DNA of 64,000 nucleotides from Eledone cirrhosa (taxonomy: Eukaryota): positions 9,052,001-9,116,000 of the forward strand of contig OZ024753.1 in assembly GCA_964016885.1 (NCBI GenBank), given 5' to 3'. The position numbers were made by a program, and so were the translations under genes. The first letter of the stretch is position 1, and every line of letters begins with the position of its first letter. Under the pieces are notes generated by a model that saw only the letters and a list, made by a program, of their open reading frames with translations, was not told the DNA's origin and made no database searches. Below are positions 18,013-64,000 of the stretch, piece after piece.

Positions 18013-18589
18013 TTATAGATGAATATTAAGAAGGACGTAGTTATGCAAAAACACCGGAGGCTATTACCCCCAGGTGGTGTCCAGCAGAAGCAAGAGGGAC
18101 GATCGTCGATGCATTTCAAACTTAACTGGTTCTCACCAGGACGATCCCTCCCACTGCTCTGCGACTGCTGGACTTGAAGACAGGTGAGAATATATAGTTT
18201 TCTCGTCTGTGTAAATGAGGTGATTAATCTCATTTGCATATGAAGCTGCATAAGTTGGCTCAACTTAGAATAGAATAGAATTAGTATTTAGCTTTGAGCT
18301 TAGCTGTATACAGATATGTATTAGAATGCCATATTTCTAAAGAAATACAGTATGTTTATAGATAAACATACCAGTGTTTTTTGCATAGCTACGGCTTTCC
18401 AATTGTTTATATATATATATATACCTATACATGACAACCACCCTAGTGTTGGTACCAGTTAGTAAAGTCAGTAAAGTGGTTTTTGTAAGGGCATCCCTCC
18501 AAATATGGGGTCAGTAGGACTCTCCTGCTATATCAAAGACATGACAACCTCATTAGTGCTGGTGTCTTGATAAAAATGAACTCAGTAAT

Positions 18590-19480
18590 AGTGTTGTAGT
18601 ATGGCCTGGCTGTTTAGATAGTGCTCTAGCATGGCCTGGCTTGTTAGATGGTGCTGTAGTATGTCCTGGCTTCTTACATGGTGTTGTAGCATAGCCAGGC
18701 TTCTTAGATGGTGCTGTAGCATGGCCAGGTTTGTTAGAATATGCTGCAGCATGGCCAGGCTTCTCAGGTGGTGCCCTAGCATGACCTGGCTTGTTAGATG
18801 GTGCTGTAGCATGGCCTGGCTTGTTAGATGGTGCTGTAGCATGGCCAGGCTGATTAGATTGTGCTGCAGCATGGCCAGGCTTCTCAGGTGGTGCCCTAGC
18901 ATGGCCAGGCTTGTTAGATGGTGCTGTAGCATGGCCAGGCTGTTTAGATGGTGCTGCAGCATGGCTAGGTTTGTTAGAATATGCTGCAGCATGGCCAGGC
19001 TTCTCAGGTGGTGCCCTAGCATGGCCTGGCTTGTTAGATGGTGCTGTAGCATGGCCAGGCTTTTCAGGTGGTACCCTAGCATGGCCAGGCTTTTCAGGTG
19101 GTGCCCTAGCATGGCCAGGCTTGTTAGATGGTGCTGTAGCATGGCCAGGCTGTTTAGATGATGCTGCAGCATGGCCAGGTTTGTTAGAATATGCTGCAGC
19201 ATGGCCAGGCTTCTCAGGTCGTGCCCTAGCATGGCCTGGCTTGTTAGATGGTGCTGTTGTACGGCCTGGTTTGTTAGATTGTGCTGTAGCATGGCCTGGT
19301 TTGTTAGAATATGTTGTAGCATGGCCTGGTTTGTTAGAATATGTTGTAGCATGGCCAGGTTTGTTAGATGGTGTTGTAGTATGGCCTGGCTTCTTACATG
19401 GTGTTGTAACCTGGCCTGGCTTGTTAGATGGTGCTTTGGCATGGCCAGGCTCTTTAGATGGAGCCCTGTGGAACGGCCAG
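18590..19480. repeat. 30 bp minisatellite (ATGGCCAGGCTTGTTAGATGGTGCTGTAGC), ~29 units
   Basis: Exact 30 bp register; 2-3-unit versions occur at ~24760, 33575, 35245, 40270 and 43360. Confidence 0.97.
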
Positions 19481-20206
19481 GATACTTGGAACAATCATTT
19501 CTAAATTTCGCGCATGCGCATTCAACTCCATCCAAACCAAGAAGAACAAAACAAATGGCCGTCAGTTTGGAGAATTTTTCAAGCTCTACAAAACTCTTGT
19601 TAAATGGTTTCAAAAGAGACAGTTGCAGTTTTCTGAAAGGTAACGTAAATGTTTATATTATGTTAAGATATTTTGGTAAATCTTTCCTTCATAATCAACC
19701 ATTTTAACGAAAGTCTTTCTCTACTTACGGTATTTCTAATGAAATACACAGACCACGTGTTCCAATTCATGTTGAAAATGAAAAAAATAAAATGTAGGGA
19801 TTTAATAATAAAATTCAACGCGTTTCTTTTTATTTTGCAAAAAATGTATCTAGTGTATTTTTTAAAAACTCTTCCTAGTTTTCCCTGTAACAGCTCAGTT
19901 GTCTTTAGCAAATATTTTCGATGTATTTAAATGTTTCTTTCAAGATTGAGATGAAAGACTGCAAATTGTCCATTCGATACTTCAGCAATGTTAAACATTT
20001 TCTGAAACTTGCAAATTAATTTTGTATTCTGGAGCAGATTCTACGGGGGGTCTCCTATGAGGTTATCTGGTGTTTTAAAGATAGGGGCCACAGCCCAATT
20101 ACCTGATCCCGCTCACATATTCCTGAGAGGGTCGTAAAAGCAGATTCCTCAACAACTTATCCCAGCGCGTCCAAGAGTTGTTTTAGACCCTGATAAAATG
20201 TGTGCC

Positions 20207-20243
<37 letters not shown>

Positions 20244-20874
20244 CGGTCTTAGATAATTGTTGCTAAATATTATCTAAAAATGTTGTAAATTAATTTCAGT
20301 TTTTAAAGCACTTTAACCCTCGATATGTTCGTTCTACGGGGGTGCTTCACATATGACGTTTGTCTGGTGTTTTAACAAAAGGGCCCGGCACATACACTAA
20401 CATCTCTCTCTATATATATATATATAAACTGGTTTTAAATAACCCGCTGGGTCAGGCCATTATAATGTGGAATCTTCGTTTATGTTGATGTATTATGGGT
20501 AAACTGTTTTTAGTTCCCTTCATAATATCGTCATTAGGGGTAGGTGGGTTCGATTCCTGGACTGGGTTGGGTGTTGTGTTTATTTTATTTCACGTTGCTC
20601 CAGTATACTCAGCTGTAGCTGGGTGGTTAACTCTGCGATGGACTGGCGCCCTGTCCAGCGCGTAGTCTTGTATTCTTAGATGTTTCACGCCATGGAATCC
20701 GGGGTACGCACCGGCGTGATGAGCCTCCGACCTTGGGACAGACTTTAGATATCATCAACCATTTGAACAGCCTTTTTTCTTGGACTCCAACCCTCGTGGT
20801 ACCCTATTTCTAACGGAATACACAGCCCATGCACCGCGATTAATATTGGAAAATAATGAAACTTTTGAAGGAAT

Positions 20875-21195
20875 TTAATAATTGTTTCTACTTTAGGCAC
20901 AAGGCCAGCAATTACCCAGTACATTACTGGTACTTTATTTTATCGACCCCCGTAAGGATGAAAGGCAAAGTCAACGGAATTTAATAATGATTTCTAGCAT
21001 TGGCACATGGCCAACAATTTAGGGTGAGGGGGAAGTCGACCCAGTACATTACTGGTGCTTTATTTACCGATGCCGTGAGGATGGAAGGCAAAGCTAACCT
21101 CGGTAGAATTTGAACTCAGAACGTAAATGGCCGTCACTCTGTGCCATAAAGCATATTGTCCGACGCTCTATCGATACTGCCAATTCACAGCCGTG
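20875..21195 (-). mobile_element. Two Nin/Deu-like SINE copies (one partial)
   Basis: Reverse complement of the family core and tail. Confidence 0.8.
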
Positions 21196-21689
21196 AAGGA
21201 ATTTAATAAAACCACCTTGGCTATCGTTTAACTTGTTGCGTGTAGGTCACTTAATCTGGATAAACATCACCTTTGTTCTTGCACGGCTATCGGAGCGGAG
21301 TTAGCTACGAGTGAGCCCTGCGAGATGCATTAGCTGTTTCAGTGTGTCACCCTTGCCATCCTCCCTAGCTCCGGAACCACGATTATATTTACTTAAGCAC
21401 TATTGTTGTATTATTAAAAAATGAAAAACCTGTGTGTTTGTTTTTTATTCACAAAATTAATGTTGAAAATAAACAATAAAATGTTGTGATTTAATAATAA
21501 AATTCAGCTTGTCTTCAGCAAATCTTTCGATTGGTTTAAATGTTTCTTTCAGGATTGAGATCAAAGACCGTAAATTTATGTTACAATTGTTTCATAAAGC
21601 CTACAGTTTGACAAATGTGTCCGAACACGGAAGAACCGAACTCCCACTGCCATCGCCTCCATCTCTCTGTATGGTGAGCAAATGGGGTC

Positions 21690-23900
21690 CTACGTGCTGA
21701 CCGCCCCACAGCTCCGGTGGACAGAATGGAGAAGGAGTTTTCCCGGAAGATGGTAAGGGAGATGCGCTGGAAGAGCCAATCCACCCTGCGAGGTTCACAC
21801 CTGCGGCTGGCCAGCTGACACCTGTGTCTAGTCAGCTCACACCTGCGGCTAGCCATCTCAGCGCCTATGGTGGTAAGTAGGGAGGTAGCTCTAGAGCCAA
21901 GGACACCAGAAGTCTCCATTGCTAAGGGCACGACTGCAAATCTGTCGGATAGCGACCGATACTTGAAGCGTTTGCCCTCATCAGCCCGAAGTATAGCAGA
22001 ACCTGGGTTAGTCACAGACTGTACCAGGAGAAAGTGACGCTGCAAGTGGCATCACAGACGAGGGGTTTGCCAAACAGAACGGGAAGATGGTCATACCATC
22101 TGGCCTTTTGCCGTACCCTCGGTCTAGCCCCACCGGCTCCAGCTGGGAGGGGAAGCCTACAGCACCAAAGCCATGATTTGTGACCTCTTTGAGGGTGGAA
22201 GGCGGACAGGAAAGCGGGTGGCGGCCGAAAGAGTCCACAGCGACATTTGTGTGGCTCACAGATCCGGAGGCCAAGCCTCAGGGAAACTCCGATATGCAGG
22301 CTATCGTTGTCAGTGGAGGAGGGTAAGGCATGGAGCCAGGTACCACTGTGGGGTTGTGAGGCCGCGCGAAAACTGCAAGATGACGCGTTAGAGATTTAAT
22401 GGCATCCCAAATATACTGAGATGCCATCCCAAATACTCTGGGGGAACATGACGTCAGCAGGGGGAGGAGGGACGTCTACTGGGCCAAGTCCAAGCTGGTT
22501 CCACGACTCACAGGCGACCTCACGTTCCTCGATCACAGAGGATTCCATTGTGTTTAGGAGAACCCTGTTGACGAGGACGTGGCATGAGATTACGGGCAAA
22601 GCCACCATATCTAAGAGGTAAGTTGACCTGTTGCCATCCAATGTTGTCAAACTTGACGTTGCATATCTCCTCGGCTGCCGCTTGGATACAAGTATCGAGG
22701 TCAGCGAGGAGAGATGCATGGCTGTAGCACTGCGAAGGGTATAGAGGAGCTTCGGCATGGCGAAGCAGTTCCTCAACAGGTAGAGGGCTGGGTGGGCGTC
22801 GATTATGCCCAGTCTGCACGTGAGGGTCTTTAGTTGCTGGAGCGGGTGGATTGGTGACCCAAAGATGAGGACATCTCCTTTGGGGGGGTCACCTGTACCG
22901 AGATGGAGGCTGCAAAGATCTCAGCAACATAGTTGACAGTCACCACCTCCGACTTGGAAGAGTTGACCTGGAGGCCGATTCCCGCCAGAGGAGGAACCAC
23001 TGATTGTAGGTGACAATCAGTCTCCACGGGCTCACCTAACGTAACATCATCCAGGTACCAAACGTTGAGAGGGGCCGTCATACTCTGGGCAATGTGGTCT
23101 ATTCCAAAAGCAAATAGGCGGAGGTCCCAAAGGGTCACCCTGTTGGACCCCATTATTTGAAGGTATGACCATAGCAGCAGCAAGGAACATGCTCGGGGCT
23201 CCATATGACAGGTAGGCAGAGGGGGCTCGGCTGAGGCAGGCATCAAGCAGGTAGTCACTGCGTATGGAGTCGAAGGCATTCCTCATGTCAAGCTTGACAA
23301 TGAGGTGCCTGGATGCCGGTTCCGGTCGGCAGCTGTGGAAGAACTGTGCGGCCACCGGACACGCCGACATCCAGTTGCACCGGACTCAGCTCCTCGCCCA
23401 GTTCAGGTGTGATGGACCTGCAGACCACCTTAGCAGCTAGCCTCCAGAAGACATTGCCCACAGCGAATGCCACTCACTTTCTTCCTGAGAGCAGTCAGAC
23501 TAGCTGAAAAAAGAAAGGCATCATGCGTGAGGGTCCAGGGCGCCATGGATGAGCCTATTTGTGAGTGCCACAATTGCACATAGAAGGCGGCGCCCGGCCT
23601 CAGTGGAGAGGGGAGATAACAACTCCTTGAGGTGGCCAGGTCAGAGACCATCAGCACCTGCGTTGCTGTTGGCTGGGAAGGTCTTGATGGGAAACATGAT
23701 GTCTACGCCGGAAGCCACTAGGAGCAAGTGAGGATCAGATAGGTCTAAGGTCGGCGGGCGGCTCAGGGTGCTTAAGCCGTAGGGTAGCCAGCACCTCCTC
23801 GGTGGGTTGGAGGACAATGTCCTCCGGGGCAACCACCCTGACTGCAGCCGAGATATCACCCATGATTAGTTTGGCGTAAAAGCTTTGCGCTGGCCTCAGC
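21690..23900 (-). pseudogene. Decayed CRE-clade non-LTR retrotransposon (RT plus restriction-like endonuclease), copy 1
   Basis: Frameshifted motifs AVGNVFWRLAAK, LIVKLDMRNAF, GVQQGDPLGP, WYLDD, LRNCFAMPKLLYTLR, LPLRYGG, KRPDG, PLAMETSG, WLFQRIS. Confidence 0.9.
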
Positions 23901-26900
23901 GGTGGAGGATTGGAGACCCCCCAAGAGCAAAGGGTGTGGAGTCCTTCGGTACACTTGGGATGGGGGCTTGCCCATAGGTCGAAACATTGGTTCAATTCTT
24001 CAGCAGTGCTAAATATTTTCTAAAACTGTAATTACAATTTAAATCCCCAAAGGAGGTGGAGGTTTTCTGCTGTAGCAGGCAGATAGGGGGGAGGGGCGAC
24101 TGTGCGTTGGCCACGGGCATCATTTCGGGAAAAGAACTTAATAAATTTGATTGATTTATATTAAAATCGAATAAAGCGTTTATATCGTGTTTCATCTGTT
24201 TATATATTCAAAATGTTTTCCTTTCTCAATATATTAGGCCTTATACTTGAGTCTTTGGGGCATTAGGGATTATACTTGAGTCTTTGGGGCATACAATCAA
24301 GATTTGCCCCGGGCATCACCAGAGCTCCGCACGTCGCTGTTTCTCTGGTCTGTCGCGAGCCAAGAAGCTTATCCCGTAAAGTGACTGAGAGTACAAGACG
24401 CCAGTCCATCACAAGCCCCCCCCCCCCCCCTCACTCATTTCTGGTACTCATTTTCAGCTGAATTATGCTGGCCGTAAAAACTAAAACAATTGTAAATTTA
24501 TTTCAGTTTTTCGATCACTTTCTTCCGCTGTATGTTCATCATTAGTTAACTGTCGATCAGTGTTTGCAAAGATCGATATCGACTAACTTGAGAGTTTATT
24601 TCGCCATCATTAAGTCCCAGGTTCGAACACACCCCATGTGAAACTGGTTAGACAGAAACTCTATAGAAGTCTGTCATCTGTAATTCAAATGGCCAGTCTC
24701 ATAAGGCTGAATCTTCCTGAGCATTAAGTATGTTCGCAATTATAGATTAATTTCTAGTGCTGTAGCATGACCAAGTTCTTTATATAATGCTGTAGCATGG
24801 CCAGGCTGTTTAGATGGTGCTGTAGCATGGCCAGGATACTTGGAACATGCGCACTGGGTTTCTAAATCTCGCGTTTGCGCATTCGACTCCATCCAACACA
24901 AGAAAATAAAATGGCCATCAGTTTACTAAATGGTTTAACAATGGACAATAGCAGCTTTCCGAAAGGTAACGTAGATTTTTATATTATGTTGAGAAATGTT
25001 TGTAAATCTTTCCCTCTTAGTCTCCTTCGTATAATCTACTATTTACACATACCTAGTTGTTCTCTTATTAACGTATTTTTAATGAAATACACACCTACAT
25101 GTTTCAATACATTGCGAATATAATAAGATTTAACAGATATTTTTAATTAATAAATATGTATCTAGTATAGTTTAAAATTCATTCCTACTTCTTCCTGGGG
25201 GTAGTTCCTTTGTCTTTATCAAATCCTGCTGTCGACTATTTCTCCTCATCAACATGTGGTTGTCTTCCTCTCCAGATCGAACTCGCTCCCACTTAGCAAT
25301 CGAACGAGGTGGTTTCGATCGTTGACTTTGGGAACTTTCCAAAAGCTGCCCACCTCCTGCAATGTTTAACAATGGATAATAGCAGCTTACCGAAAGGTAA
25401 CGTAGATTTTTATATTATGTTGAGGTATTTTTGTAGACCTTTCCCCCCTCTGTTCCTGGGGTAGTTCCTGTGTCTTTATCAAATCCTTCTGTCGACTATT
25501 TCTCCTCACCAATATGTGATTGTCTTCCTCTCCAGATCAAACTCGCTCCCACTTAGCATTCGAAAGTGATGGTTTCGATTGTTGACTTTTCCAAAAGTTA
25601 CCCACCCCTTGCAATCTTTCCGAGGTACACACAATAAGTCCACCTGTTCTCCATCTATGTTTTAAACCCCTTTACTCCCATTTGACTTTGTCGATGGGGG
25701 AATCTTATCTTCCGTCTTGTAATGTTGTACATTTAATTCTATACATCTAAGTTTTGTTTTCATCTTATTAGTCCAAGAACAGTGTACGTCTGTTCTTCTG
25801 GTAATCATGGTTGAAGTATTGATCAGTGTTAACAGATCGATATCTATTTCCCATCATTAGGTGAGAGAGTGACAACTTCGGCAAGTGTCATCATAACCTT
25901 CAGTTGGCCCATGTCCTGTGAGTTAAATTTAGTAGACAGAAACTGTCTGGAAGCCTATAAGATGGACTCTACCTGTAATAGAGACAGTCTTGTCACAGAC
26001 CGTGTGAAACTTCAGTATTTCTTCCCATAGTGGTTACAATGTTGAACTTACGATCATAATGTGATAAGTTCGATTCCTTGATCGTGTTGTGTTCTTGAGC
26101 AAAACACATCATTTCACGTATACTTATCTGAAAATGAATACCAGCAGCATCTTTGGGGTTTAACTCTGGAAGACAGTACTTCTAACGATCTTTCCTTCGT
26201 TTTGTTTTTGTCTTAATACTCCAAGAACAGTGTTGATTATTTTGACTTGTTGGTAATACATATATACACTGGTTCTTCTCCACTGCCTTGGTGTCCACTC
26301 TAATAGTTCACCTACTGTGGGGAAGCAAGAGTCGTGGCCAGCCCATCTATATTTGCCCGGTTATGTTCATTCAATTTTGTTGCTCTTCCTGGTATGATTT
26401 GCTCCATTCAGCTTCACGGTGGTCTGCCTTCTTGTGCTGTATAATGCCTTCAGGTCTCTTCAGTTATAAGCCTCTTTACTGGAACCTCAGATCACCATTC
26501 GATCTTTATTTTTCGTGTTTTACTTTGCAGTTTTGATTTTGCTTCTGATAAAGCTTATTCTTGTCATCGAACCAGTCTCTGTGTTTTGTCTTCTTAATAT
26601 ACAGTTCATCAGCCCCAACACTATAAACTTATGTTTTAAACTCTTCCCAAGTTCCACGACGTTGTCAAGTGCATTTCTAAACTAAAGTTTTGACACGTTT
26701 TGGCATTTGTACCCCTGCTGTCCTCATTTATTTCCATATTAATTGTTCTGCAAATATATATAGAAACGGAGTGAGATAACACACGAAATATATTTTGAGA
26801 CGTGTTACCTCCCTTTCTTTCCGTTTCTATATATTTAAAAAAAAAATAAACAAAATTTTACCTATAAGTATGACTAATTTACTCAGCAGAATTGCTGTTT

Positions 26901-27200
26901 AGCGTGGCGATGCGCGCAGCGGCTCGGACTTCGTCGTCAACATATGTATGTGTCGTTTCCATACTATGTGTCGGAAGTTCGAATCGTTGTGGTGTGCACG
27001 TGGCTGGGACTATTTGCAGGCTGGCTAGATGCGCGCGAAAAATCCGTCTTACCCCCTTTTGATCAAAAATGTTATTAGAGTTATCTCCCTCTATGTAACT
27101 CTTCTCTTTTTTTCAATTGACTTCCGGTTGTTTGAAAGAAAGCCATTTTGGATATCTTTCTCATGTAAAGAGGTATGTAATGTTTTCTTTCCTGCACACG

Positions 27201-27428
27201 AGGACTATCTAAGAAACTAAACCTTCTCTCTATACACATACATTTTATAAGATACACACTTTATGTAAATAACTCTCTCTTTGCTGTATACTAGGACTCT
27301 CTAAGAAACAAAACCTTCTCTCTATACACATACATTTTATAAGGTGCACACTATATGTCAATAACTCTCTCTTTGCTGTATACTAGGACTCTCTAAGAAA
27401 CAAAACCTTCTCACTATACACATACACT
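27201..27428. repeat. 92 bp tandem repeat (~2.5 copies)
   Basis: AGGACT(A/C)TCTAAGAAAC at 27201, 27293 and 27385. Confidence 0.9.
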
Positions 27429-27884
27429 TCTTTTCAAGTCTTCCACATAATGGTGGTTGAATATTACACCCCTATCGAAACTTAAGTTTTGAACGATTAT
27501 TATTTTAGAAAGTTCATTTACATTCTTAAGATTTACCATTTTTACGGAGGTAAAGCAACACCGCATATTTCTCTTCTAGATAAAACTTCATCTACATCCT
27601 TAGACGTTTCTTGCTTAAGAAACTTCTTCTACATTCTTAGTTTCTCTCTTCAGAAACATCAATGTCTCTATAATAAAAAACAAAGTCGGAAGAATTTTGT
27701 AAACATTCTTTTTATTGACAACGTACGTACATGACTTTAATAGATTTTCTTATTTCAGATGTCCAGCCTTCTAGGTCATGTGCTGTAACAATTGGGAATG
27801 ACGAAGTTTGTTAATAAAGAAAGTTTACAGATGTCCAGCCTTCTAGGTCATATGTTGTTTGCTGTAACAAGTCGGAATGAAGAA

Positions 27885-28236
27885 AGTTTATTTTGACAAA
27901 AATGAATAAAGAAATCAAGAGTCTATATGAAACTGAGTAAAACATAATAAAGAAAGTTTACATACTATATACGAATTGTGTTCAGTTTATTTTGACAAAA
28001 ATGAATAAAGAAATCAAGAGTCTATATGAAACTGAGTAAGACAATAAAGAAAGTTTACATACTATATACGAATTGTGTTCAGTTTATTTTGACAAAAATG
28101 AATAAAGAAATCAAGAGTCTATATGAAACTGAGTAAGACAATAAAGAAAGTTTACATATTATATACGAATTGTGTTCAGTTTATTTGACAAAAATGAATA
28201 AAGAAATCAAGAGTCTATATGAAACTGAGTAAGACG
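27885..28236. repeat. ~97-99 bp tandem repeat (~3.5 copies)
   Basis: AGTTTATTTTGACAAAAATGAATAAAGAAATCAAGAG recurs four times. Confidence 0.9.
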
Positions 28237-28395
28237 TACTAAAAAGAAACTAGGAAGTTTCTTTAGAAAGAATGTAAGTAAAGTGTCTGAAGAAAGTTTC
28301 TTAGGGAAGAATGTAGATCAAGTGTCTAAAAATAATCTGAATCAAGTTTCTTTAGAAGAATGTAGATGAAGTGGCTAAAAAAATGAACTTTTTTA

Positions 28396-28697
28396 AGAAT
28401 GTAGATGAAGTGTCTTAAAAAAAGGTACTAAGAATGTAGATGAAGTGTCTTAAAAAAAAAAGATACTAAAAATGTAGATGAAGTGTCTTAAAAAAAGATA
28501 ATAAGAATGTAGATGAAGTGTCTTAAAAAAGATAATAAGAATGTAGATGAAGTGTCTTAAAAAAAGATAATAAGAATGTAGATGAAGTGTCTTAAAAAAA
28601 GATAATAAGAATGTAGATGAAGTGTCTTAAAAAAAGATAATAAGAATGTAGATGAAGTGTCTTAAAAAAAGATAATAAGAATGTAGATAAAGTGTCA
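28396..28697. repeat. 35 bp minisatellite (AAGAATGTAGATGAAGTGTCTTAAAAAAAGATAAT)
   Basis: 8-9 units with a degenerate lead-in from ~28250. Confidence 0.93.
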
Positions 28698-31600
28698 AAA
28701 AAAAAAAATCTATATGAAATGTGTGTTTTTGAAAAGTCGAAAAAAATTTCTATATGAAATGAGTGTTTTTGAAAAGTCGAAAAAAAAATCTATATGAAAT
28801 GTGTGTTTTTCAAAAGTCGAAAAAAATTTCTATATGAAATGAGTGTTTTTGAAAAGTCGAAAAAAATTTCTATATGAAATGTGTGTTTTTGAAAAGTCGA
28901 AAAAAAAATCTATATGAAATGTGTGTTTTTCAAAAGTCGAAAAAAATTTCTATATGAAATGTGTGTTTTTGAAAAGTCGAAAAAAATTTCTATATGAAAT
29001 GTGTGTTTTTGAAAAGTCGAAAAAAATTTCTATATGAAATGAGTGTTTTTGAAAAGTCGAAAAAAATTTCTATATGAAATGTGTGTTTTTGAAAAGTCGA
29101 AAAAAAAATCTATATGAAATGTGTGTTTTTCAAAAGTCGAAAAAAATTTCTATATGAAATGTGTGTTTTTCAAAAGTCGAAAAAAATTTCTATATGAAAT
29201 AAGTGTTTTTGAAAAGTCGAAAAAAATTTCTATATGAAATGTGTGTTGTCGAAAAAAAAATCTATATGAAATGTGTGTTTTTGAAAAGTCGAAAAAAATT
29301 TCTATATGAAATGAGTGTTTTTGAAAAGTCGAAAAAAATTTCTATATGAAATGTGTGTTTTTCAAAAGTCGAAAAAAATTTCTATATGAAATGTGTGTTT
29401 TTGAAAAGTCGAAAAAAAAATCTATATGAAATGTGTGTTTTTCAAAAGTCGAAAAAAATTTCTATATGAAATGTGTGTTTTTGAAAAGTCGAAAAAAATT
29501 TCTATATGAAATGAGTGTTTTTGAAAAGTCGAAAAAAATTTCTATATGAAATGTGTGTTTTTGAAAAGTCGAAAAAAATTTCTATATGAAATGTGTGTTT
29601 TTGAAAAGTCGAAAAAAAAATCTATATGAAATGTGTGTTTTTCAAAAGTCGAAAAAAATTTCTATATGAAATGTGTGTTTTTGAAAAGTCGAAAAAAATT
29701 TCTATATGAAATGAGTGTTTTTGAAAAGTCGAAAAAAATTTCTATATGAAATGTGTGTTTTTGAAAAGTCGAAAAAAAAATCTATATGAAATGTGTGTTT
29801 TTCAAAAGTCGAAAAAAATTTCTATATGAAATGTGTGTTTTTCAAAAGTCGAAAAAAATTTCTATATGAAATAAGTGTTTTTGAAAAGTCGAAAAAAATT
29901 TCTATATGAAATGTGTGTTTTTGAAAAGTCGAAAAAAAAATCTATATGAAATGTGTGTTTTTGAAAAGTCGAAAAAAATTTCTATATGAAATGAGTGTTT
30001 TTGAAAAGTCGAAAAAAATTTCTATATGAAATGTGTGTTTTTCAAAAGTCGAAAAAAATTTCTATATGAAATGTGTGTTTTTGAAAAGTCGAAAAAAAAA
30101 TCTATATGAAATGTGTGTTTTTCAAAAGTCGAAAAAAATTTCTATATGAAATGAGTGTTTTTGAAAAGTCGAAAAAAATTTCTATATGAAATGTGTGTTT
30201 TTGAAAAGTCGAAAAAAATTTCTATATGAAATGAGTGTTTTTGAAAAATCGAAAAAAATTTCTATATGAAATGTGTGTTTTTGAAAAGTCGAAAAAAATT
30301 TCTATATGAAATGTGTGTTTTTGAAAAGTCGAAAAAAAAATCTATATGAAATGTGTGTTTTTCAAAAGTCGAAAAAAATTTCTATATGAAATGAGTGTTT
30401 TTGAAAAGTCGAAAAAAATTTCTATATGAAATGTGTGTTTTTGAAAAGTCGAAAAAAATTTCTATATGAAATGTGTGTTTTTGAAAAGTCGAAAAAAAAA
30501 TCTATATGAAATGTGTGTTTTTGAAAAGTCGAAAAAAATTTCTATATGAAATGTGTGTTTTTCAAAAGTCGAAAAAAAAATCTATATGAAATGTGTGTTT
30601 TTCAAAAGTCGAAAAAAATTTCTATATGAAATGTGTGTTTTTCAAAAGTCGAAAAAAATTTCTATATGAAATAAGTGTTGTCGAAAAAAATTTCTATATG
30701 AAATGTGTGTTTTTGAAAAGTCGAAAAAAAAATCTATATGAAATGTGTGTTTTTGAAAAGTCGAAAAAAATTTCTATATGAAATGAGTGTTTTTGAAAAG
30801 TCGAAAAAAATTTCTATATGAAATGTGTGTTTTTCAAAAGTCGAAAAAAATTTCTATATGAAATGTGTGTTTTTGAAAAGTCGAAAAAAAAATCTATATG
30901 AAATGTGTGTTTTTCAAAAGTCGAAAAAAATTTCTATATGAAATGAGTGTTTTTGAAAAGTCGAAAAAAATTTCTATATGAAATGTGTGTTTTTGAAAAG
31001 TCGAAAAAAATTTCTATATGAAATGAGTGTTTTTGAAAAGTCGAAAAAAATTTCTATATGAAATGTGTGTTTTTGAAAAGTCGAAAAAAATTTCTATATG
31101 AAATGTGTGTTTTTGAAAAGTCGAAAAAAAAATCTATATGAAATGTGTGTTTTTCAAAAGTCGAAAAAAATTTCTATATGAAATGAGTGTTTTTGAAAAG
31201 TCGAAAAAAATTTCTATATGAAATGTGTGTTTTTGAAAAGTCGAAAAAATTTCTATATGAAATGAGTGTTTTTGAAAAGTCGAAAAAAATTTCTATATGA
31301 AATGTGTGTTTTTGAAAAGTCGAAAAAAATTTCTATATGAAATGAGTGTTTTTGAAAAGTCGAAAAAAATTTCTATATGAAATGTGTGTTTTTCAAAAGT
31401 CGAAAAAAATTTCTATATGAAATGTGTGTTTTTGAAAAGTCGAAAAAAATTTCTATATGAAATAAGTGTTTTTGAAAAGTCGAAAAAAATTTCTATATGA
31501 AATGTGTGTTTTTCAAAAGTCGAAAAAAATTTCTATATGAAATGTGTGTTTTTGAAAAGTCGAAAAAAATTTCTATATGAAATAAGTGTTTTTGAAAAGT

Positions 31601-31908
31601 CGAAAAAAATTTCTATATGAAATGTGTGTTTTTCAAAAGTCGAAAAAAATTTCCATATGAAATGTGTGTTTTTGAAAAGTCGAAAAAAAAATCTATATGA
31701 AATGTGTGTTTTTGAAAAGTCGAAAAAAATTTCTATATGAAATGAGTGTGTCGAAAAAAATTTCTATATGAAATGTGTGTTTTTGAAAAGTCGAAAAAAA
31801 AAATCTATATGAAATGTGTGTTTTTCAAAAGTCTAAAAAAATTTCTATATGAAATGTGTGTTTTTGAAAAGTCGAAAAAAAAATCTATATGAAATGTGTG
31901 TTTTTGAA
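28698..31908. repeat. 40 bp satellite (TCTATATGAAATGTGTGTTTTTGAAAAGTCGAAAAAAATT), ~80 units
   Basis: Read directly from the sequence; highly homogeneous. Confidence 0.98.
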
Positions 31909-32559
31909 AGTTAAGTTAATTATCTTTCAAACAACCGGAAGTCAATTGAAAAAAAAGAGAAGAGTTAAATAAAGGGAGATAATTCTAACAATTTTTAGCA
32001 AAAGGGGGTAAAGCGGATTCTCATCGTGGTCTAGGACGCAGGCCAGCATATAGCCAGCCTGCAAACATCCCAGCCGCCGTAGCCACGTGCACACCACAAC
32101 GATTCGAACTTGCGATACATAGTATGGAAACGACACATACATACGTAGCCGACGAAGTCCGAGCCGTTGCGCGCATCGCCACGCACAAGCCGCAATTCTA
32201 CTAAGTGAAATAGTCATACTTATAGGTAAAATTTTATTTATCTTTTTAAAAAAAATATAGAAACGGAAAGGGAGATAACACGTCGCAAGATATATTTCGT
32301 GTGTTATCTCTCATTCCGTTTCTATATATATATAAAGTAATTTTGAACGTATATACGGAACAATTTTTATGGAAATAAATATAATTATGTCAAGCTGGTA
32401 ACATATAATACAGGTAGACCTGTGTGGGGGGACAACTACCACTGTATATCGGGTACGTTAAAAGGCAGGCCCATTCTGTTATCTCAGAGAAAGAGTCTTG
32501 CCGCGTATCACTTCCAGTTTCTCAGAGGCTGGACTGTAAGTAAGCTTAAAGAAGATGGA

Positions 32560-32850
32560 GGTATTCCACCAGCCTGCACCTCAGGAAGTTTACCACCCTC
32601 CCCATTGACGAGACTGAACTGAAAACAGTCCATCAATTTCAGCTACCTGGGGTACATCGGATGCCAAGATTGACAGGGAAATCAGCAACAAACTGGCAAA
32701 GATGAGCAGTGAATTTGGTAGACTAACGTGTGGAAGATTAAACATGAAGCTGAACTCCCAACTACGCTGGGCAGGGCACGTCTTTAGGATGATGGATCAT
32801 CTTTATAGGCGTTCGTGATAAGAAGGCCAAATATCAAGAACTTGTGAGGG
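32560..32850 (+). mobile_element. Degenerate RTE/BovB-like fragment, paralogue of 36520-36990
   Basis: Translations FSYLG...DAKIDREISNKLAK and QLRWAGHV. Confidence 0.65.
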
Positions 32851-35506
32851 GTGTTACGGTTGAGGGCGAAAATTCCCAATGAACGTAAGTGAATAAACAA
32901 TTTAAGGTCTTTGATCTCAATCTTGAAAAAAGCATTTAAATATTAACTAAAACTAGGAAGAGTTTTTAAAAAATACAATCACATATTTTCTGTGAATAAA
33001 AAATAAATGTTATTAATTCCCTACATTTTCAACCATGATTACCAGAAGAACAGACGTACACTGTTCTTAGACTAATAAGATGAAAACAAAACTTAGATGT
33101 ATAGAATTAAATGTACGACATTACAAGACGGAAGATAAGATTCCCCCATCGACGAAGTCAAATGGGAGAAAAAGGGTTTAAAACATAGATGGAGAACAGG
33201 TGGACTTATTGTGTGTACCTCGGAAAGATTGCAAGGGGTGGGAAACTTTTGGAAAAGTCAACAATCGAAACATATCACTTTCGATTGCTCAGTGGGAGCG
33301 AGTTTGATCTGGTGAGGAGAAATAGTCGGCAGAAGGATTTGATAAAGACAAAGGAACAGAGGAGGGAAAAATCTACAAAAATACCTCAACATAATATAAA
33401 AATCTACGTTACCTTTCGGTAAGCTGCTATTATCCATTGTTAAACCATTTAGCAAGAGTTTTTATAAAGCTTGTAAAATTCTACAAACTGATGGCCATTT
33501 TTTGTTTGTTTGTTTTGGATGGAGTAGAATGCGCAAGCGCAAGATTTAGGAACTCAGTGCGCATGTTCCAAGTATCCTGGCCATACTACAGCACCATCTA
33601 AACAGCCTGGCCATACTACAGCATTATCTAAACAGCCCGGCCATGCTACAGCATGTATCATTTCATCAAAGAATAATTTAAAAAATCGATACAAATGTGA
33701 CTAATACGTACCTTGATGGCTTCCATGTTTAAGGGTGTGCGATTGACACATGGCCCCAGTTCTTGGCATGTTAAAAGACAGGTCATCCTTTTATAAGCTG
33801 CAAATGTGGACCGTATGGAGGGACAGCAGACCTCACCTTATATCAGATGTGACACCGTATCATGGTACAATCTGAATGACCGGGACCCGGATCTGCCACA
33901 ATATCTCATCAGATATGAGCAAAAACACATTCACACCTTTAACTTTAATTACGGAATTACCTAATATATATGTTTGTAAGCGTGGGGATTGAATAACTGC
34001 ACTGTGGAGCTTATCGTTAAAACCTCACCCATAGATCCTGCTCCAGAATACAAAATATTTAGCACTGTTGAAGAATTGAATCAACAATTTAAGGTCTTTG
34101 ATCTCAATCTTGAAAGAAGCCTTTAAATACACCTAAATCTTGGAAGAGTTTTAAAGAAATACAATCGACATATTTTCTGTGAATAAAAAAGAAATATGTT
34201 ATTAATTCCCTACATTTTATTGTTTCTTTTCAACACGTGCTCTGTGTATTTCATTAGGAATACGGTAAGAAGGGACTTCCTCTAGATAGGACGCCAGTCG
34301 ATTGCAAGGTTAAAGTATGTCTCAAACCCGGAGGCTCATTGGACCGGTGCTTAGTCGGCTGAAAATACAAGAGCCTCACCTACTGGAGCCACATGAAATG
34401 AAGTGTTTTGCTCAAGAACACAACACGATCAAGGAATCGATCTTATCACATATGATCGTAACCACTATGGGAAGAAATACTGAAGTATGTGACAAGACTG
34501 ACTCAATTACAGGTACAGTCCATCTTACAGGCTTCCAGAGAGATTCTGTCTACTAAATTTCACTCGCAGGACATGGGTCAACTGACGGTTATGATGACCC
34601 TTGCCCAAGATGTCTCTCTCTCTCACCTAATGATTGAGAATTCACGTGGGGAAAAGTTAATCGATATCGTTCTGATCAATACTTCAACCATGATTACCAG
34701 AAGAACAGACGTACACTGTTCTTAGACTAATAAGATGAAAACAAAACTTAGATGTACAACATTACAAGACGGAAGATAAGATTCCCCCATCGACAAAGTC
34801 AAATGGGAGAAAAGGGGTTTAAAACATAGATGGAGAACAGGTGGACTTATTGTGTGTACCTCGGAAAGATTGCAAGGGGTGGGTAACTTTTGGAAAAGTC
34901 AACAATCGAAACCATCACTTTCGATTGCTAAGTGGGAGCGAGTTTGATCTGGAGAGGAAGACAGTCACATATTGGTGAGGAGAAATAGTCGACAGAAGGA
35001 TTTGATAAAGACACAGGAACTACCCCAGGAACAGAGGGGGGAAAGGTCTACAAAAATACCTCAACATAATATAAAAATCTACGTTACCTTTCGGTAAGCT
35101 GCTATTATCCATTGTTAAACCATTTAGCAAGAGTTTATATAAAGCTTGTAAAATTCTACAAACTGTCGGCCATTTTTTGTTGGTTTGGGATGGAGTAGAA
35201 TGCGCAAGCGCGAGATTTAGAAACTCAGTGCGCATGTTCCAAGTATCCTGGCCATACTACAGCACCATCTAAGATCCATGGCCATGCTACAGCATTATCT
35301 AAACAGCCCGGCCATGCTACAGCATATATCATTTTATCAACGAATAACTAAAAAAATCGATACAAATGTGACTAATACATACCTTGATGGATTCCATGTT
35401 TAAGGGTGTGCGATTGACACATGACCCCCAGTTCTTGGGATGTTAAAAGACAAACACAACCTTAGATGTAACAGCTGCCGTGTGGGGGACAGCTACCACA
35501 ATAAAC

Positions 35507-36205
35507 TCTATGTAAAAAGATTGTCAATGCTCTAGGGACCACATTAGGCGATTTAGCGATCTTTCTCTTTTTAGATAGATACATACATATAACGTCCCGC
35601 CCTTATAATATATGTCTGCATTACCACTTCCCTGAGGATGTCTGTGAGTTTGAATCCCTAAAACTCGAGAAGTACCCAACCGACTTTTTTCAAACTTTAC
35701 ATGTGTATTACTTATGTTTCAGGGAGTGTTATGCACATAAAATCAACTTTTTGATCTCCTAGGGCCCGCATTAGGTGAAAAACTGCGTTTTTAAGCTTTT
35801 TACGGTTTTTTTGAGGCGTTACGTCAGACCGATTTCCTTGAAATTGTAACTATGTATTAGTCAGTTTCTTCATACCGTGAGCAAAGAAAATTCAACTTTT
35901 TTATGGCCTAGGGCCCGCATTAGGTGAAAAACTTCATTTTTTCAGCTTTTTGGAGGCGTTACGTCTAGCCGATTTTCCCAAAATTTCAAGGCATATTATG
36001 CACATAAAAAAAATTCATTTTCTTGATCCTCTAGGGCCCGCATTAGGTGAAAACCTGCTTCATCGAGGAAAATCTTAAAGATTATCCAGCCATCAGAGTA
36101 TTCGGTTTAATTTCTTTACATATTGTCCATGCATGCAGTTTTTCCACGATTAGGTCTGTTGGCGGCCCGCGTTCCAAAATACCTTACGCCGGGTATCACT
36201 GCTAG
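35507..36205 (+). mobile_element. Non-autonomous Helitron
   Basis: 3' ACGCCGGG...CTGCTAG|T end shared with the other Helitrons; internal CTAGGGCCCGCATTAGGTGAAAA repeated three times; similar to 50081-50637; 5' end approximate. Confidence 0.7.
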
Positions 36206-36519
36206 TACTCTATATAAGGGACCTTAAGAGACAGGCTCATCCTTAGATGTAACTGTGGGCCGTATGGAGGAACAGCTTCCACAATACACTGTATATCAGG
36301 GAAGTTAAAAGACAGACCCATCTTTTAACGGCTGTCGTGTGTGTTGGGGGGGGGGGGGGGGGGGGGGGACACACAGCTACCACTGTATTTCAGGGACGTT
36401 AAAAGACAGGCCCATTCTGTTATCACAGAGAAAGAATCTTGTTGCGTATCACTTCCAGTTTCGCAGAGGCTGCCCAGCTTTCTGGACTGTAAGCAAGCTT
36501 AAAGAAGATGGAGGTATTC

Positions 36520-36990
36520 CACCAGCAGACTGCACCTCAGGAAGAGTACCACCCTCCCCATTGGCGAGACTGAACAGAAAACAGTCCATCATTTCAGCTA
36601 CCTGGGGTGCATCTTCACATCGGATGCCAAGATTGACAGGGAAATCAGCAACAAACTGGCAAAGGTGAGCAGAGAATTTGGTAGACTGTACTAACGTGTG
36701 GAAGATTAAATATGAAGCTGAACTCCCAACTACGCCTGCCCAGGATCACTCTCAAATATCTATAGGCGTACGTGTGACAAGAAGGCCAAATATCAAGAAT
36801 CTGTGCAGGAGAAAGGTTCGCAAGTATGGCTATTTCCATTCGAAGTGGGCTGCAGGGGATTCTCGGCCCAATCAGTATGGAGAATGCTCACAATCATTAG
36901 AATGAGAGGACGAGTGAAGAAGGCTGTACTACGCAGGATGGGGGGGCAGCAGAAAAGGCTTCCTTTTAGCTTTGGATCGGAAGAGAGGAG
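36520..36990 (+). mobile_element. RTE-like fragment joined to a HERO-like RLE C-terminal fragment
   Basis: FSYLGCIFTSDAKIDREISNKLAK, followed by KKAKYQE...VWLFPFEVGCRGFSAQSVWRML. Confidence 0.65.
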
Positions 36991-37612
36991 ATAAGCTGGA
37001 AGCTAGGTGGCGATAATGGGCAGTAATTCCCAATGAACGTAGGACACGGCCAATTGACATCAACACCTCCTGGCCAAGGCTATGTCCATCGAAGGTGAAT
37101 GAATGTGAGGCACCTGAGTACATAATTATGCCTATATATATATATCATCATCATCATCATCGTTTAATCTTCCACCCTAGCATGGATTAGACGGGTTTGT
37201 CCCATTTAGAGGCAAATTGGGTCGGGTGGCCGTGTCTCGCTCATATATATATATATAAGCAGGAACGAAGTCAATTGCAGCATACATATAAATTTTATTG
37301 GCATATTGCAATCGTATCAATACCGATCATATCATGGTGCAATCAGAATGACCGGTGCAATCAATATCTCATCAGATATGTGAGTTTATATGAGCAAAAA
37401 CATATTCACACCTGTAACTTGAATTACGGAATTACCTAATATATATGTTTGTAAGCGTGGGGATTGAATAACTGCACTGTGGAGCTTATCGTTAAAACCT
37501 CACCCATAGATCCTGCTCCAGAATACAAAATATTTAGCACTGTTGAAGAATTGAATCAACAATTTAAGGTCTTTTATCTCAATCTTGAAAGAAGCCTTTA
37601 AATACACCTAAA

Positions 37613-39793
37613 TCTTTATATATATAAAAGCGAGGATGTGTGTGTGTCTGTGTACAACTTTGCATGCATAAGGCTTTCACAATTACCAACTGAATTTGAC
37701 CAAATTTTCTGTGCACGTTGCACATGTCGCTAAGATTGTCACATCACAAACATTTTTCAAACCGACCCACGTTGAGTAATAAAAAATCGATATCAAAATG
37801 ATCGGTAGAAAAATTGATTTAAGGGAAATAACAAACTTTATTGACAATCCTTATAAAAAAGGGAGATAACCTTTTCACCAAATATGCCTCGTAAAAGAAA
37901 GTATGCACATATTGGCTATCGGTCGAAGAAAACAATGCGTGTAAATGACGCTCCGCCGATAACCGAAAATAGACAATCACTAAATGCGGTGAGTACAGTT
38001 ATTGCAACATCTTTGTCCGCCGCTGAGCGTCGGTTAGTGCGGCGAACCAATAATGCTGAAGCAACTGCTGCAGAGCAACGTGAAACACGCCTTGCTATGG
38101 ATGCTACAGATACTGCTGCAGCAAGATCTGCAGAGACAGTACAAAAGTATGAAAGGCAGCAACTTTGCTCCCTGGTGGAAGGACGGCACATTCAGTTTTT
38201 AAATTGCCCCTTGATTTGGCAAAATTGGAAACTCCTACTTGTCATATCACCAAAAACTCCGAAAGGGCTCATCTGCTGCGAAGGTGTCACCTTATTGTTT
38301 GGGATGAGTGCACAATGGCACACAAAGGTGCTCTTGAGGCACTAGACGGGTCTTTACAAGACCTACGGGATTGCAGTGATGTTATGGGGGGTGTCACCCT
38401 TATGCTATCAGGAGACTTCAGACAGACTCTTCATATAATACCGAAAGGAACAAGAGCAGATGCGGTAAATGCATGTCTTAAGTCTTCACCATTATGGCGA
38501 CAAGTGACATCATTAAGACTAACTACCAACATGCGTGCAAGGCTGCATGGGGACCCTCTGTCATCAACATTTTCTGGAGACATTCTTACAATAGGAGATG
38601 GTAACCTATCTCCGGATACAGATGGACACATAGCAATTGATCACATCTGCAATGTAGTTGAAACTGTCTATGATCTCAAGACGAGTGTATTCCCGAACTT
38701 GCGTGATAACTATACGAATCTTTGGCTATGCAAAAGAGCCATTCTTGCACCCCAAAATATCACGGTTAGCTGTATTAATGATCAGTTTCTTCCTGGATGT
38801 CCAGGGATATATAAATCTATTGATACTGTATGTGCTCCACAGGATGCGGTCAACTATCCAGTTGAATTTCTAAATTCTTTAAATCCTCCTGGTTTACCTC
38901 CTAATACATTGGTTCTGAAAGTGGGAACGCCAGTTATTTTGCTGAGAAATATCACTCCTCCAAAACTATGCAATGGTACACGCCCTGTGGTTAAAAAACT
39001 GTCTCCTCTTAGTATTGACGCTACCATTCTATCAGGATGTGGAAAAGGTGAGGATGTGATAATAACAAAAATTAGCCTGACTACATCAGGCGTGGATACT
39101 CCATTCTCCTTTCGCCGAACCCAATTTCCCCTTCGTGTTGCCTTTGCGATGTCCATAAACAAGTCGCAAGGTGAAACTCTGTCCGTCGCTGGAATTCACT
39201 TGGATGAACCTTGCTTTTCGCACGGACAATTCTACGTTGCCTGCTCACGAGTTGGCAGTCGAGATAATCTCTTTGCGTTTGTTCCGAAAAGAAAAACAAA
39301 GAATATCGTCTATCCTGAAGTGCTTTAGTGTTAACAAAAAAACTTATTACAGCTCTGCCTTGACTTTACCTTACACATTACAAAACATACCAATGAATAT
39401 GTCATGCAGGATATTTTGGATTATAAGTTCAAAATGTAACCATACACAGCAAAGGATGCTCTCAAAGAATAGATTTTCTCTTATTCTACTCATTGTTTTT
39501 TTGTTTGTATACAACTCTGCTTTCATTACAACTTTTGGTACTTTAGCAAAACTGCCTGTTTTTTTTTTATAGATTTGCAACGTGTATTGTCTTTAATCAT
39601 TTGTATAACTACATCCTGTTCAGTGTTTTCCTTCATTATCAGCATAGTTTTATGTGTACAAAGATTGCATTAATTATTGAAGACTTCTGCTTATTTTGAC
39701 AGGTTGGGGAGAAATAATGTTCTTCTTTTACTTCCTAGCTGTATATTCTTAGCATAATTTCAAACCCTGAGCAACGCCGGGTAAATCTGCTAG
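37613..39793 (+). mobile_element. Internally deleted Helitron
   Basis: A|TC 5' end; subterminal hairpin CCCTGAGCAACGCCGGG; CTAG|T 3' end; PIF1 helicase ORF inside. Confidence 0.93.
37884..39328 (+). pseudogene. Truncated Helitron Rep/Hel: N-terminus joined out of frame to the PIF1 helicase C-terminal part
   Basis: MPRKRK...EQRETRL, then GGRTAHSVFK, IVWDECTM, GDFRQTL, LCNGTR, QFPLRVAFAMSINKSQG, FSHGQFYVACSRV, NIVYPEVL; HUH domain and Walker A absent. Confidence 0.9.
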
Positions 39794-43175: not shown

Positions 43176-43906
43176 ATCACGTACCGTTGTAGTTATGGTA
43201 TACAGATTTTGCCATCATTATTATTATTGTCTTTCTGTCTAGCCCTGAATTAGATCCCGTCATTATACTAGCATCCTAGCTTAAAATCCAAAACCTTTCT
43301 TAACTTATTTACTGAGCTGTTACAGGGAAAACTAGGAAGAGTTTTAAAAAAATAATGTAAGAAGCCAGGCTGTACTACGGCATCATCTAACAAGCCAGGC
43401 CATGCTACAGCACCATCTTAAACAGCCAGGCTATGCTACAGCACTATTACCGAGTGCATTTTTATTGGAACACCAGCACTAATGAGGTTGCCATGTCTTC
43501 GATATAGCAGGAGAGTCCCCCTGACCCCATATTTGGAGGGATGCCTTTACGAAAACCACTTTACTGACTTTACTAAGTGATACCAACACTAGGGTGGTTG
43601 TCATGTATTTGATACAGTTGAAGGGTCCTCCTTGTTTCTGTTTTGGGCTCAAAGCTAACAATTTTTGGGGAGGGGAAAGTTGATTAACTCGACCCCAGTG
43701 CATTATTGTATGCTTACCTGGCAGGTGCTTAGGTATATTGTGCGCTGGGGTTAGCCCCTCTAGGTGTGTCGTCTTACCCTTCTCCCAGTTGTACCTATCA
43801 TTCTCCTGAGAATAACTGTTTCTACTTTTGGCACAACGCCAGAAATTTCCCCAGTTCATTACTGGTGTTTTATTTTATTAAAGTTAACCAATGATGAACA
43901 TAAAGA

Positions 43907-45915: not shown

Positions 45916-45918
45916 CTC

Positions 45919-45958
<40 letters not shown>

Positions 45959-63928: not shown

Positions 63929-64000
63929 TGTGTTTTTATATATATATATACACACTTATACATATATATATAGATGTATTTATGTATTTGTGTTTGTATG

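Follow-up and report, generated by a model that had tools for sequence, protein, structure and literature searches.

Within the window (the whole 64,000-nt stretch of Eledone cirrhosa contig OZ024753.1 analysed here, whose coordinates are used throughout), positions 26757..32326 hold a 5.6-kb non-coding element with inverted, palindrome-capped ends and four tandem arrays inside, which we read as probably a non-autonomous foldback DNA transposon. Its features, including the terminal inverted repeats (TIRs) and two short blocks just outside, are as follows (strand given where one was assigned):

26726..26748: left outer block, an inverted copy of 32358-32380, overlapping a retrotransposon-like ORF relic
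26754..27139, plus strand: left TIR, counted from within a TA run, with the exact terminus somewhere in 26755-26763
26756..26834: left terminal palindrome, ~25-nt arms and an AT-rich loop; -14.5 kcal/mol, z -5.5
26890..27139: CpG-rich inner part of the left TIR, CpG observed/expected 1.40 versus 0.54 for the whole window
26911, 26997 and 27120: motifs of the inner left TIR, respectively TGCGCGCA, CACGTG and CCGGAAGT
27078..27089, minus strand: inner copy of the palindrome-arm motif GGGAGATAAYTC in the left TIR, a candidate secondary transposase site
27186..27426: 92-bp tandem array, 2.6 copies
27497..27680, minus strand: left inner arm, with the 35-bp motif in inverted, degenerate copies
27753..27892: imperfect duplication with 72-bp spacing, near the symmetry centre
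27885..28235: 97-bp tandem array, 3.6 copies
28356..28705, plus strand: 35-bp tandem array, 9.8 copies; degenerate copies start at ~28270
28700..31909, plus strand: 40-bp satellite, 80.9 copies with 81 monomer starts, four main variants interspersed
31923..32331, minus strand: right TIR, counted into a TA run, with the exact terminus somewhere in 32322-32330
31974..31985, plus strand: inner copy of the palindrome-arm motif in the right TIR, a 12-nt word in common with the palindrome
32255..32327: right terminal palindrome; -21.6 kcal/mol, z -9.0
32358..32380: right outer block, an inverted copy of 26726-26748

The original prediction was of a single long-TIR, satellite-bearing, non-coding element, and TIRs, palindromes, arrays and coding scans all support it. 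The TIR pair (26754-27139 versus 32331-31923) is identical at 344 of 417 columns (82% with gaps, E 6e-104), with 33 substitutions per 371 aligned columns (8.9%) and indels besides, and its lengths of ~390 and ~410 bp agree with the long TIRs of foldback elements. A GC-rich TIR segment containing CACGTG and a second motif had been foreseen and was found; one CACGTG lies in each TIR (two of the eight occurrences in the window), and both window copies of CCGGAAGT lie inside the TIRs. This CpG-rich segment may be promoter-like; a bacterial promoter scan, a method ill-suited to animal DNA, returned no promoter. TA direct repeats border the element on either side, and the target duplication can be read as 2, 4, 6 or 8 bp; because of the TA runs at both ends, neither the terminus nor the duplication length nor the superfamily can be fixed. 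The TA duplication of Tc1/mariner is an allowed, non-unique reading, and for Mutator/MULE elements, which duplicate 8-10 bp, a G or AG terminus is compatible with an 8-bp duplication of pure TA repeat but not with one of 9 bp. Merlin was rejected because no reading of the terminus gives terminal GG, and Kolobok and piggyBac because TTAA is absent from both junctions; KolobokP differs in having long repeats that are direct, not inverted.

Each TIR begins, as predicted, with an imperfect palindrome of about 70 nt, AT-rich and mismatched, whose stability was equalled by none of 200 shuffles, left and right alike. Two Rfam miRNA-family matches were far below gathering scores and were dismissed as chance hairpin matches. 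The best reading of the palindrome makes it a facing pair of one motif; each TIR carries a further copy ~320-340 bp inward, and the motif is likely to be a transposase site. The motif occurs three times per end, significantly so for the right end: no shuffle in 500 equalled the right inner copy, and 191 of 500 equalled the left one, which taken alone is not significant. A 70-bp MITE consisting of the palindrome by itself was rejected, since diverged contigs join palindrome to TIR and depth is higher just inside than over the palindrome, a depth comparison to be read with the caveat that palindromes may assemble poorly.

These contigs come from public sequencing runs, four of which, listed under one species label and one study, contain words of the element; none contains half of the words, and no RNA run is among those listed. 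To the mapped region, the left end at 26450-27900, we assigned 341, 336 and 365 contigs of three runs from one sample and 116 reads from another study, most of them less than 95% alike to the locus. In run X1, summed contig depth, which does not equal copy number, ranged from 400 to 1222 across 26744-26890 and reached 633 in the interior, and contigs identical to the locus had a depth of 5-10. Diverged contigs (13-31 other letters; records 2, 3 and 4) span the palindrome and inner TIR, one contig crosses the TIR-interior border (record 21, 27052-27187), and the symmetry centre is covered as well (record 7, 27700-27838; joints 27738-27824). Linkage of palindrome, TIR and left interior is preserved in many diverged copies. 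The left end is therefore no solo MITE, and for this end the chance opposition of two solo MITEs, named beforehand as the outcome that would overturn the prediction, was not what we found. Within the TIR, the stretch shared most widely stops near 26895, ~135 bp in, and interior depth falls to 2-15 at 27381-27429, indicating that not every copy shares the interior. At 26808, 26887 and 26939 the majority of contigs carry the right-TIR letter, which argues that the left TIR decayed privately. The family is thus dispersed, multi-copy and mostly non-coding, as foldback elements are, the copies being those seen for the left 1.1 kb.

The four arrays had been predicted at 92, ~98, 35 and 40 bp, and the measured periods were 92, 97, 35 and 40 bp. 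The inverted trace of the 35-bp motif announced near ~27586 was recovered as an alignment of 27500-27680 with 28564-28390 (68% over 184 columns, E 2.6e-18, 0/500 shuffles), and strand skew reverses at about 27771. For a shared 16-nt core (at most 3 mismatches), picked after inspection of the data, all 4 matches within 27141-27700 are minus-strand and all 96 within 27701-31920 plus-strand. With its 35-bp motif inverted in the left arm and its strand-skew flip, the interior is mirrored, and it is from this that we derive the foldback anatomy: arms with mirrored tandem repeats whose copy numbers differ. A common origin of all four array units found no support, since none of 12 tests comparing whole units of 92, 97, 35 and 40 bp with one another was significant. 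The 40-mers differ from the commonest one by 1.5 bases in 40, below the 8.9% between TIRs. The arrays do not resemble cargo of foreign origin, and at least the 35-bp array is native to the mirrored inner arms; the earlier image of a satellite container needs changing to that extent.

An interior without ORF had also been claimed. The scanned parts hold no coding relic; the sole interior stop-to-stop frame of at least 100 aa (31942-32310) sits in the right TIR and had no match in Pfam. A Pfam search of twelve read-through frames of 26757-28700 and 31900-32330, with the 40-bp array left out, gave one match below cut-off (DUF5327, E 0.014), and in these non-satellite parts of this copy the Pfam scans showed no relic of NS1, Rep, VP/capsid, pPolB or integrase.

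These scans bear on a further suggestion of the original prediction, a rolling-hairpin or linear replicon. The element would then be a non-coding derivative of a hairpin-ended, long-TIR replicon (parvovirus/densovirus- or Polinton-like), its palindromes being replication hairpins and its TIR a promoter, which we consider quite improbable. Densovirus ITRs contain promoters, and the simple hairpin at either end is in keeping with such an origin, as are long inverted ends that include a CpG-rich, promoter-like stretch. Parvoviral termini occur as flip and flop isomers, whereas here the same palindrome isomer lies at both ends (score 116 versus 80; two ends only); no flip/flop was seen among the variants listed, 40 of 207, from contigs on the left 1.1 kb. 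In the available text on Parvoviridae (PMC6537627), hairpin-forming sequence lies at either end of genomes of 4-6 kb, a range that includes the element; this size match is accidental, as one satellite makes up more than half of the length. The same text gives hairpins of 120-600 nt, in contrast to the shorter, AT-rich, mismatched hairpin here. The NS1/Rep and VP genes of parvoviruses left no relic in the scanned parts of this copy, and the family is multi-copy, diverged and transposon-like. Polinton/Maverick elements are characterised by TIRs 100-1500 bp long, terminal AG and a duplication of 5-8 bp; the TIR length here fits, and one of the permitted readings of the ends is AG with 6 bp duplicated; a non-autonomous derivative is compatible with the lack of any pPolB, integrase or capsid relic. 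A connection of Polintons with terminal hairpins was considered and not borne out, the words hairpin and palindrome having no occurrence in PMC10748475. Four pattern scans of viral contigs gave a single match (L001), which lies by chance in a phage tail gene and shows no further resemblance to the window; one scan of metagenome contigs likewise gave one (L002), a chance bacterial palindrome adjoining a recombinase gene, and one of prokaryotic genomes gave none. With a single isomer, no replication-protein relic and viral scans empty but for a chance match, the suggestion gained no positive support. It would also be a long shot to see here the gene-less satellite of an undescribed animal mobile replicon, with palindromes as hairpin telomeres or nicking sites for an HUH enzyme or resolvase, inward promoters and integration into TA runs; if true, this would connect hairpin-ended DNA viruses with TIR transposons.

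Just outside the palindromes, the outer 23-bp blocks are identical in inverted orientation at 21 of 23 positions (0/2000 shuffles). The left flank is a minus-strand ORF relic of retrotransposon-like character, presumably RTE-like to judge from its motifs, and because the left outer block overlaps it, that block is probably flank; true ends at the outer blocks are disfavoured, since depth is ~40-47 there versus ~350-400 in the next bin and the relic's alignment reaches 26739. Pfam and word-based searches gave no match that names the flank relics, comparison with 120 RT proteins gave none below E 1e-3, and the ten unnamed proteins that did match carry no useful Pfam label. No continuation of the left relic was found in the right flank, and the flanks therefore do not read as one split target. 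Flanks without mutual continuation and with an inverted duplication could mean that halves of two family copies stand head to head, through ectopic recombination (an inversion breakpoint) or opposed insertions, in a unit that was never mobile. The TIR divergence (8.9% substitutions, plus indels) and inner arms merely 68% alike and of very unequal length point the same way. We nonetheless think this unlikely: no recognisable foreign DNA separates the halves, contigs run across the symmetry centre, the left-TIR differences resemble private decay, and foldbacks, judging from the available descriptions of Tm1 and Tetris, normally have unequal arms.

Helitrons and Helentrons have asymmetric ends, a 3' hairpin and a RepHel partner. 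The ends here are symmetric, and a Helitron-type PIF1 helicase relic 6 kb from the element is unlinked to it; the element has no sequence in common with the helicase region or the rest of the window. That relic would nevertheless suit an AT-inserting element moved by an HUH (Helitron/Helentron-type) enzyme using terminal stem-loops on single-stranded DNA, as would a reading of the ends in which TA termini are set between A and T. HUH-type mobilisation has been weighed for the Aedes aegypti ATons, which, in the available text (PMC3422177), are also non-autonomous, have TIRs and end in TA between A and T; ATon-I has a putative stem-loop close to either end, and no partner is known. The AT context agrees with ours, but size and TIR length do not, since ATons are described there as shorter than 500 bp, with 15-17 bp TIRs in ATon-I and -II and no mention of satellites, and symmetric 400-bp TIRs are foreign to Helitrons, which typically lack them (PMC3422177). 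HUH mobilisation thus appears to us rather implausible.

For a foldback transposon, a partner transposase encoded elsewhere in the genome would excise the element and paste it into TA runs. The palindrome would act as double-stranded DNA that presents two facing GGGAGATAAC-type transposase sites, folding being unnecessary, and a third GGGAGATAAC-type copy would lie ~320-340 bp inside each TIR, whose CpG-rich segment may be the promoter of a lost or autonomous partner. Short arm repeats could have expanded into arrays via slippage or unequal exchange, the 40-bp array last, when TIR decay had already begun. As to superfamily, our judgement, which was not computed, is that within the foldback reading the element may tentatively be placed with Mutator/foldback-type elements or, as tentatively, with TA-/AT-targeting types (Tc1/mariner, ISL2EU, ATon-like); a superfamily outside those considered is possible to a slightly lesser degree, and IS3EU/GingerRoot is a doubtful candidate.

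If it is a foldback transposon, the element would be a probable mollusc case of such a transposon generating satellites out of its own arms, and a single element would show several array stages (2-4, 10 and 81 copies). It would be of use for repeat annotation and satellite evolution and would introduce no new principle, and its distinctive palindromic end should provide a handle for finding the partner transposase in a genome search. Greater weight would attach to a partner that is an HUH, resolvase or polymerase element, because hairpin-ended, long-TIR integrating elements are not described in the available portions of the literature surveyed. The literature search, with subscription papers, Repbase and Dfam outside its scope, found no description of this family, and a search with the element's motif returned no paper.

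Among known systems, as far as the available text of each source goes, IS3EU/GingerRoot (PMC10045372, PMC6839031) has TA..TA termini with a 6-bp duplication, an allowed but non-unique reading here, and GingerRoot TIRs of 100-150 bp, within which the ~135-bp most-shared TIR part falls; GingerRoot differs in its preference for GC-rich targets, with neither palindrome nor hairpin mentioned, and the TIR pair here is ~390 bp. MuTAnT of Medicago (PMC4486113) differs as a plant element whose termini are GGGG, whose length is mostly 200-300 bp and whose Mutator partner is known. Galileo (P superfamily, foldback-like; PMC3688188) and Tm1 (Mutator/Foldback; PMC3169594) share long, internally repetitive TIRs of unequal length, and for Galileo binding assays showed secondary transposase sites inside the TIR (PMC3688188). 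Their transposases are known (PMC3688188, PMC3169594), whereas the sites proposed here are predicted and have no linked transposase, and Tm1 generates 9-bp duplications (PMC3169594). The available text on Tetris of Drosophila virilis (PMC4079207), in which a word search found no mention of palindrome or hairpin, describes 8-9 bp target duplications and 220-bp repeats, unlike the ends in TA runs with a 70-nt palindrome seen here. Tetris is otherwise alike: it is non-autonomous, its long TIRs combine a flanking domain with tandem repeats farther in, satellite arrays of kb size have expanded within it, and an autonomous partner was not found (PMC4079207). By this analogy, the element would have a Tetris/Galileo-like anatomy, that of a foldback with internal satellites, which is an already known design.

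The two ends of the element align as an inverted pair (26754–27139 against 32331–31923) with 344 of 417 columns identical and, gaps left out, substitutions at 33 of 371 positions, bearing out the long opposed TIRs of the original prediction; no further copy of TIR or interior was found elsewhere in the 64-kb window. The imperfect palindrome said to head each TIR also held up, folding with z −5.5 on the left and −9.0 on the right (0/200 shuffles folding as well in each case). As predicted, the TIR includes a GC-rich, motif-bearing segment: the inner TIR is CpG-rich (1.35–1.40 versus 0.54 for the window) and contains all occurrences in the window of CCGGAAGT (two) and TGCGCGCA (two), which we take to be animal promoter motifs of a putative promoter. 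The interior was expected to hold four arrays and no ORF, and this is what we found, with no coding relic in the 12 read-through frames of the non-satellite parts or, by Pfam scan, in the single long frame:

Tandem arrays of the element interior
92-bp unit, 2.6 copies
97-bp unit, 3.6 copies
35-bp unit, 9.8 copies
40-bp unit, 80.9 copies

Mirror symmetry extends past the TIRs into the interior, and this is how foldbacks are built. The inverted trace of the 35-bp motif, already suspected, was confirmed at 27500–27680 (68% over 184 columns; 0/500 shuffles), and purine skew and GC skew both reverse at 27771–27772. A 16-nt core common to the 35- and 40-bp units (11/16 identical), picked after inspection, had all its matches at three mismatches on the minus strand in 27141–27700 (4/4) and on the plus strand in 27701–31920 (96/96). 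Because this core was chosen post hoc and whole-unit comparisons among the four arrays were non-significant in 12 of 12 tests, one common origin for all four is only suggested. With 81 monomer starts, four main variants and a mean difference of 1.5 of 40 bases from the most frequent monomer, the 40-bp array varies less than the two TIRs do, and thus likely grew, or was homogenised, at a later stage.

Element sequence occurred in public sequencing runs under one species label only. Three contig sets from a single sample, together with one reduced-representation read set, were placed at 80% likeness on 26450–27900, which stops short of the right end and three of the arrays; this yielded 341, 336 and 365 contigs plus 116 reads, most of them <95% alike. 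Summed depth in one contig set (X1), not to be read as copy number, was ~10 in the far flank, 47 at 26695–26743, 400–1222 across 26744–26890, 78–348 over the remaining TIR and 15–633 in the interior to 27870. Finer details come from 24 of 1134 records (individual placed contigs), 40 of 207 variant rows, 24 of 499 loose ends and 15 of 31 joints. Among the records listed, numbers 2, 3 and 4 are diverged contigs running from the palindrome into the inner TIR, and number 21 crosses from TIR to interior, with 88 letters on one side of that border and 48 on the other; several deletion-bearing joints among those listed also connect TIR with interior, their short sides being only 21–26 letters. Diverged contigs linking palindrome, inner TIR and interior argue for a single long-TIR element, as predicted, rather than a left-end solo MITE; the element is genuine, exists in multiple copies and belongs to a known kind. 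Loose ends behind 26895, among those listed, show subfamilies alike over the first 135 bp and diverging thereafter. At three diagnostic sites most contigs match the right TIR (among the variant rows listed), so the left TIR appears to have decayed independently and this copy not to be young.

The arm motif GGGAGATAAYTC is present in three copies per end, two facing in the palindrome and one ~320–340 bp inward; the right inner copy has a 12-nt word in common with the palindrome (0/500 shuffles) and the left an 8-nt match that is not significant (191/500 shuffles). By analogy with Galileo, whose transposase binds secondary sites within long TIRs (PMC3688188), we read these copies as candidate repeated protein-binding sites. 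Behind 26841, two contigs each in X1 and X3 (another contig set of the sample) have a further degenerate arm-motif copy after the palindrome, a two-contig consensus that weakly suggests additional repeats in the arms of some family members. We consider it probable that the element is a foldback of the non-autonomous, cut-and-paste type: its ends would be bound at the candidate sites by a transposase acting in trans, which would excise and insert it, and repeats in its arms would have bred the satellites.

The original prediction had also hinted at rolling-hairpin or linear replicons, and descent from a hairpin-ended or Polinton-like replicon, for which architecture is the one argument, now appears very unlikely: the hairpin is short and AT-rich (parvoviral termini span 120–600 nt; PMC6537627), the element bears no replication-gene relic and both ends carry the same isomer (score 116 versus 80 for the flipped form), their differences, judged by eye, not being compensatory. 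Moreover, pattern scans of viral contigs, metagenome contigs and prokaryotic genomes returned two chance matches and otherwise nothing. The chance match in a bacterial metagenome contig (L002, 2517–2565) is a short palindrome with a tRNA-like stretch on one side and a gene resembling a recombinase on the other, possibly an attachment site. That the element is a gene-less satellite of an undescribed mobile replicon, its palindromes serving as working hairpin telomeres or HUH/resolvase nicking sites, we regard as an equally long shot.

The element ends within TA runs (four units left, six right), where exact direct repeats of 2, 4, 6 or 8 bp all fit, depending on the chosen terminus. These readings are compatible with Tc1/mariner, AT-targeting and 8-bp-duplication types and with IS3EU/GingerRoot (TA..TA plus 6 bp) and Polinton-like elements (AG plus 6 bp); Merlin, which needs terminal GG, and the TTAA-targeting Kolobok and piggyBac were ruled out. 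Beyond the ends, a 23-bp block at 26726–26748 is repeated inverted at 32358–32380 (21/23; 0/2000 shuffles), as diverged as the TIRs, its left copy overlapping the first of two ORF relics:

Coding relics flanking the element
26420–26739, minus strand, retrotransposon-like ORF relic of the left flank, reading away from the element, matched by ten database proteins
32432–32846, plus strand, retrotransposon-like ORF relic of the right flank, reading away from the element

Two of the ten proteins align up to 26739, and from its motifs we take the left relic to be an RTE-type retrotransposon, although neither Pfam nor a comparison with 120 RT proteins gave it a name; its continuation was sought on the right flank and not found. 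The right relic recurs at 36373–36805 (83%). The inverted block and the uncontinued relic are the main support for a head-to-head hybrid of two family copies, a reading that we think unlikely; the insertion may also have hit a snap-back palindrome, or the flanks may have been rearranged by the element itself.

The window (37.8% GC) abounds in short repeats, microsatellites and the remains of retrotransposons and Helitrons, including:

Neighbouring features
38153–39328, plus strand, PIF1-type helicase frame of 391 aa (Pfam PF05970, E 8e-40; PF21530)
48523–49605, minus strand, RT relic (Pfam RVT_1, E 1e-11)
41499–41894, plus strand, RT relic (Pfam RVT_1, E 2e-4)
18591–19461, 24755–24835, 33576–33653, 35245–35324, 40272–40350 and 43358–43444, six modules that share one 30-bp minisatellite

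The helicase frame is likely a Helitron relic; its relatives are 47–63% identical, the named ones animal, with four Octopus bimaculoides proteins among the 120 listed. Relatives of the RT relic at 48523–49605 frequently have a PHD finger, the top identity among 120 listed being 65%, to an O. bimaculoides protein. From these two listings, the host is probably an octopus or an animal related to one. The two minisatellite modules left of the element lie in one orientation and the four to its right in the other, and longer inverted matches connect 18427–26119 with 33028–43608; this layout could reflect either the dispersal of a Helitron-like family or an old duplication, in inverted form, on both sides of the element locus. 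Elsewhere, a 31-bp satellite at 7658–11554 (121 copies, 96% matches) leaves some frames open for >1300 codons, tandem arrays of 143 bp (×8) and 112 bp (×5, ×4) at 1908–3060, 45351–45919 and 63475–63929 are seemingly assembled from pieces of short interspersed repeats, presumably SINEs, and a palindrome at 57794–58117 (163-nt arms, 96%) consists of two back-to-back copies of a dispersed repeat.

A literature search, with Repbase, Dfam, the AcademH paper and two supplements outside its scope, found no account of this family. By structure the element is a foldback, whose superfamily placement is not possible. ATon-I provides a precedent for stem-loops near both ends (PMC3422177), as does FARE1, cited in another paper, for palindromic ends; an HUH-moved, ATon- or Helitron-like element seems to us improbable. 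The preferred cut-and-paste foldback has counterparts of similar build in Tm1 (PMC3169594), MuTAnT (PMC4486113) and Galileo (PMC3688188), and would work in the manner of Tetris, a foldback with TIR repeats that expanded into kb-size satellites (PMC4079207).
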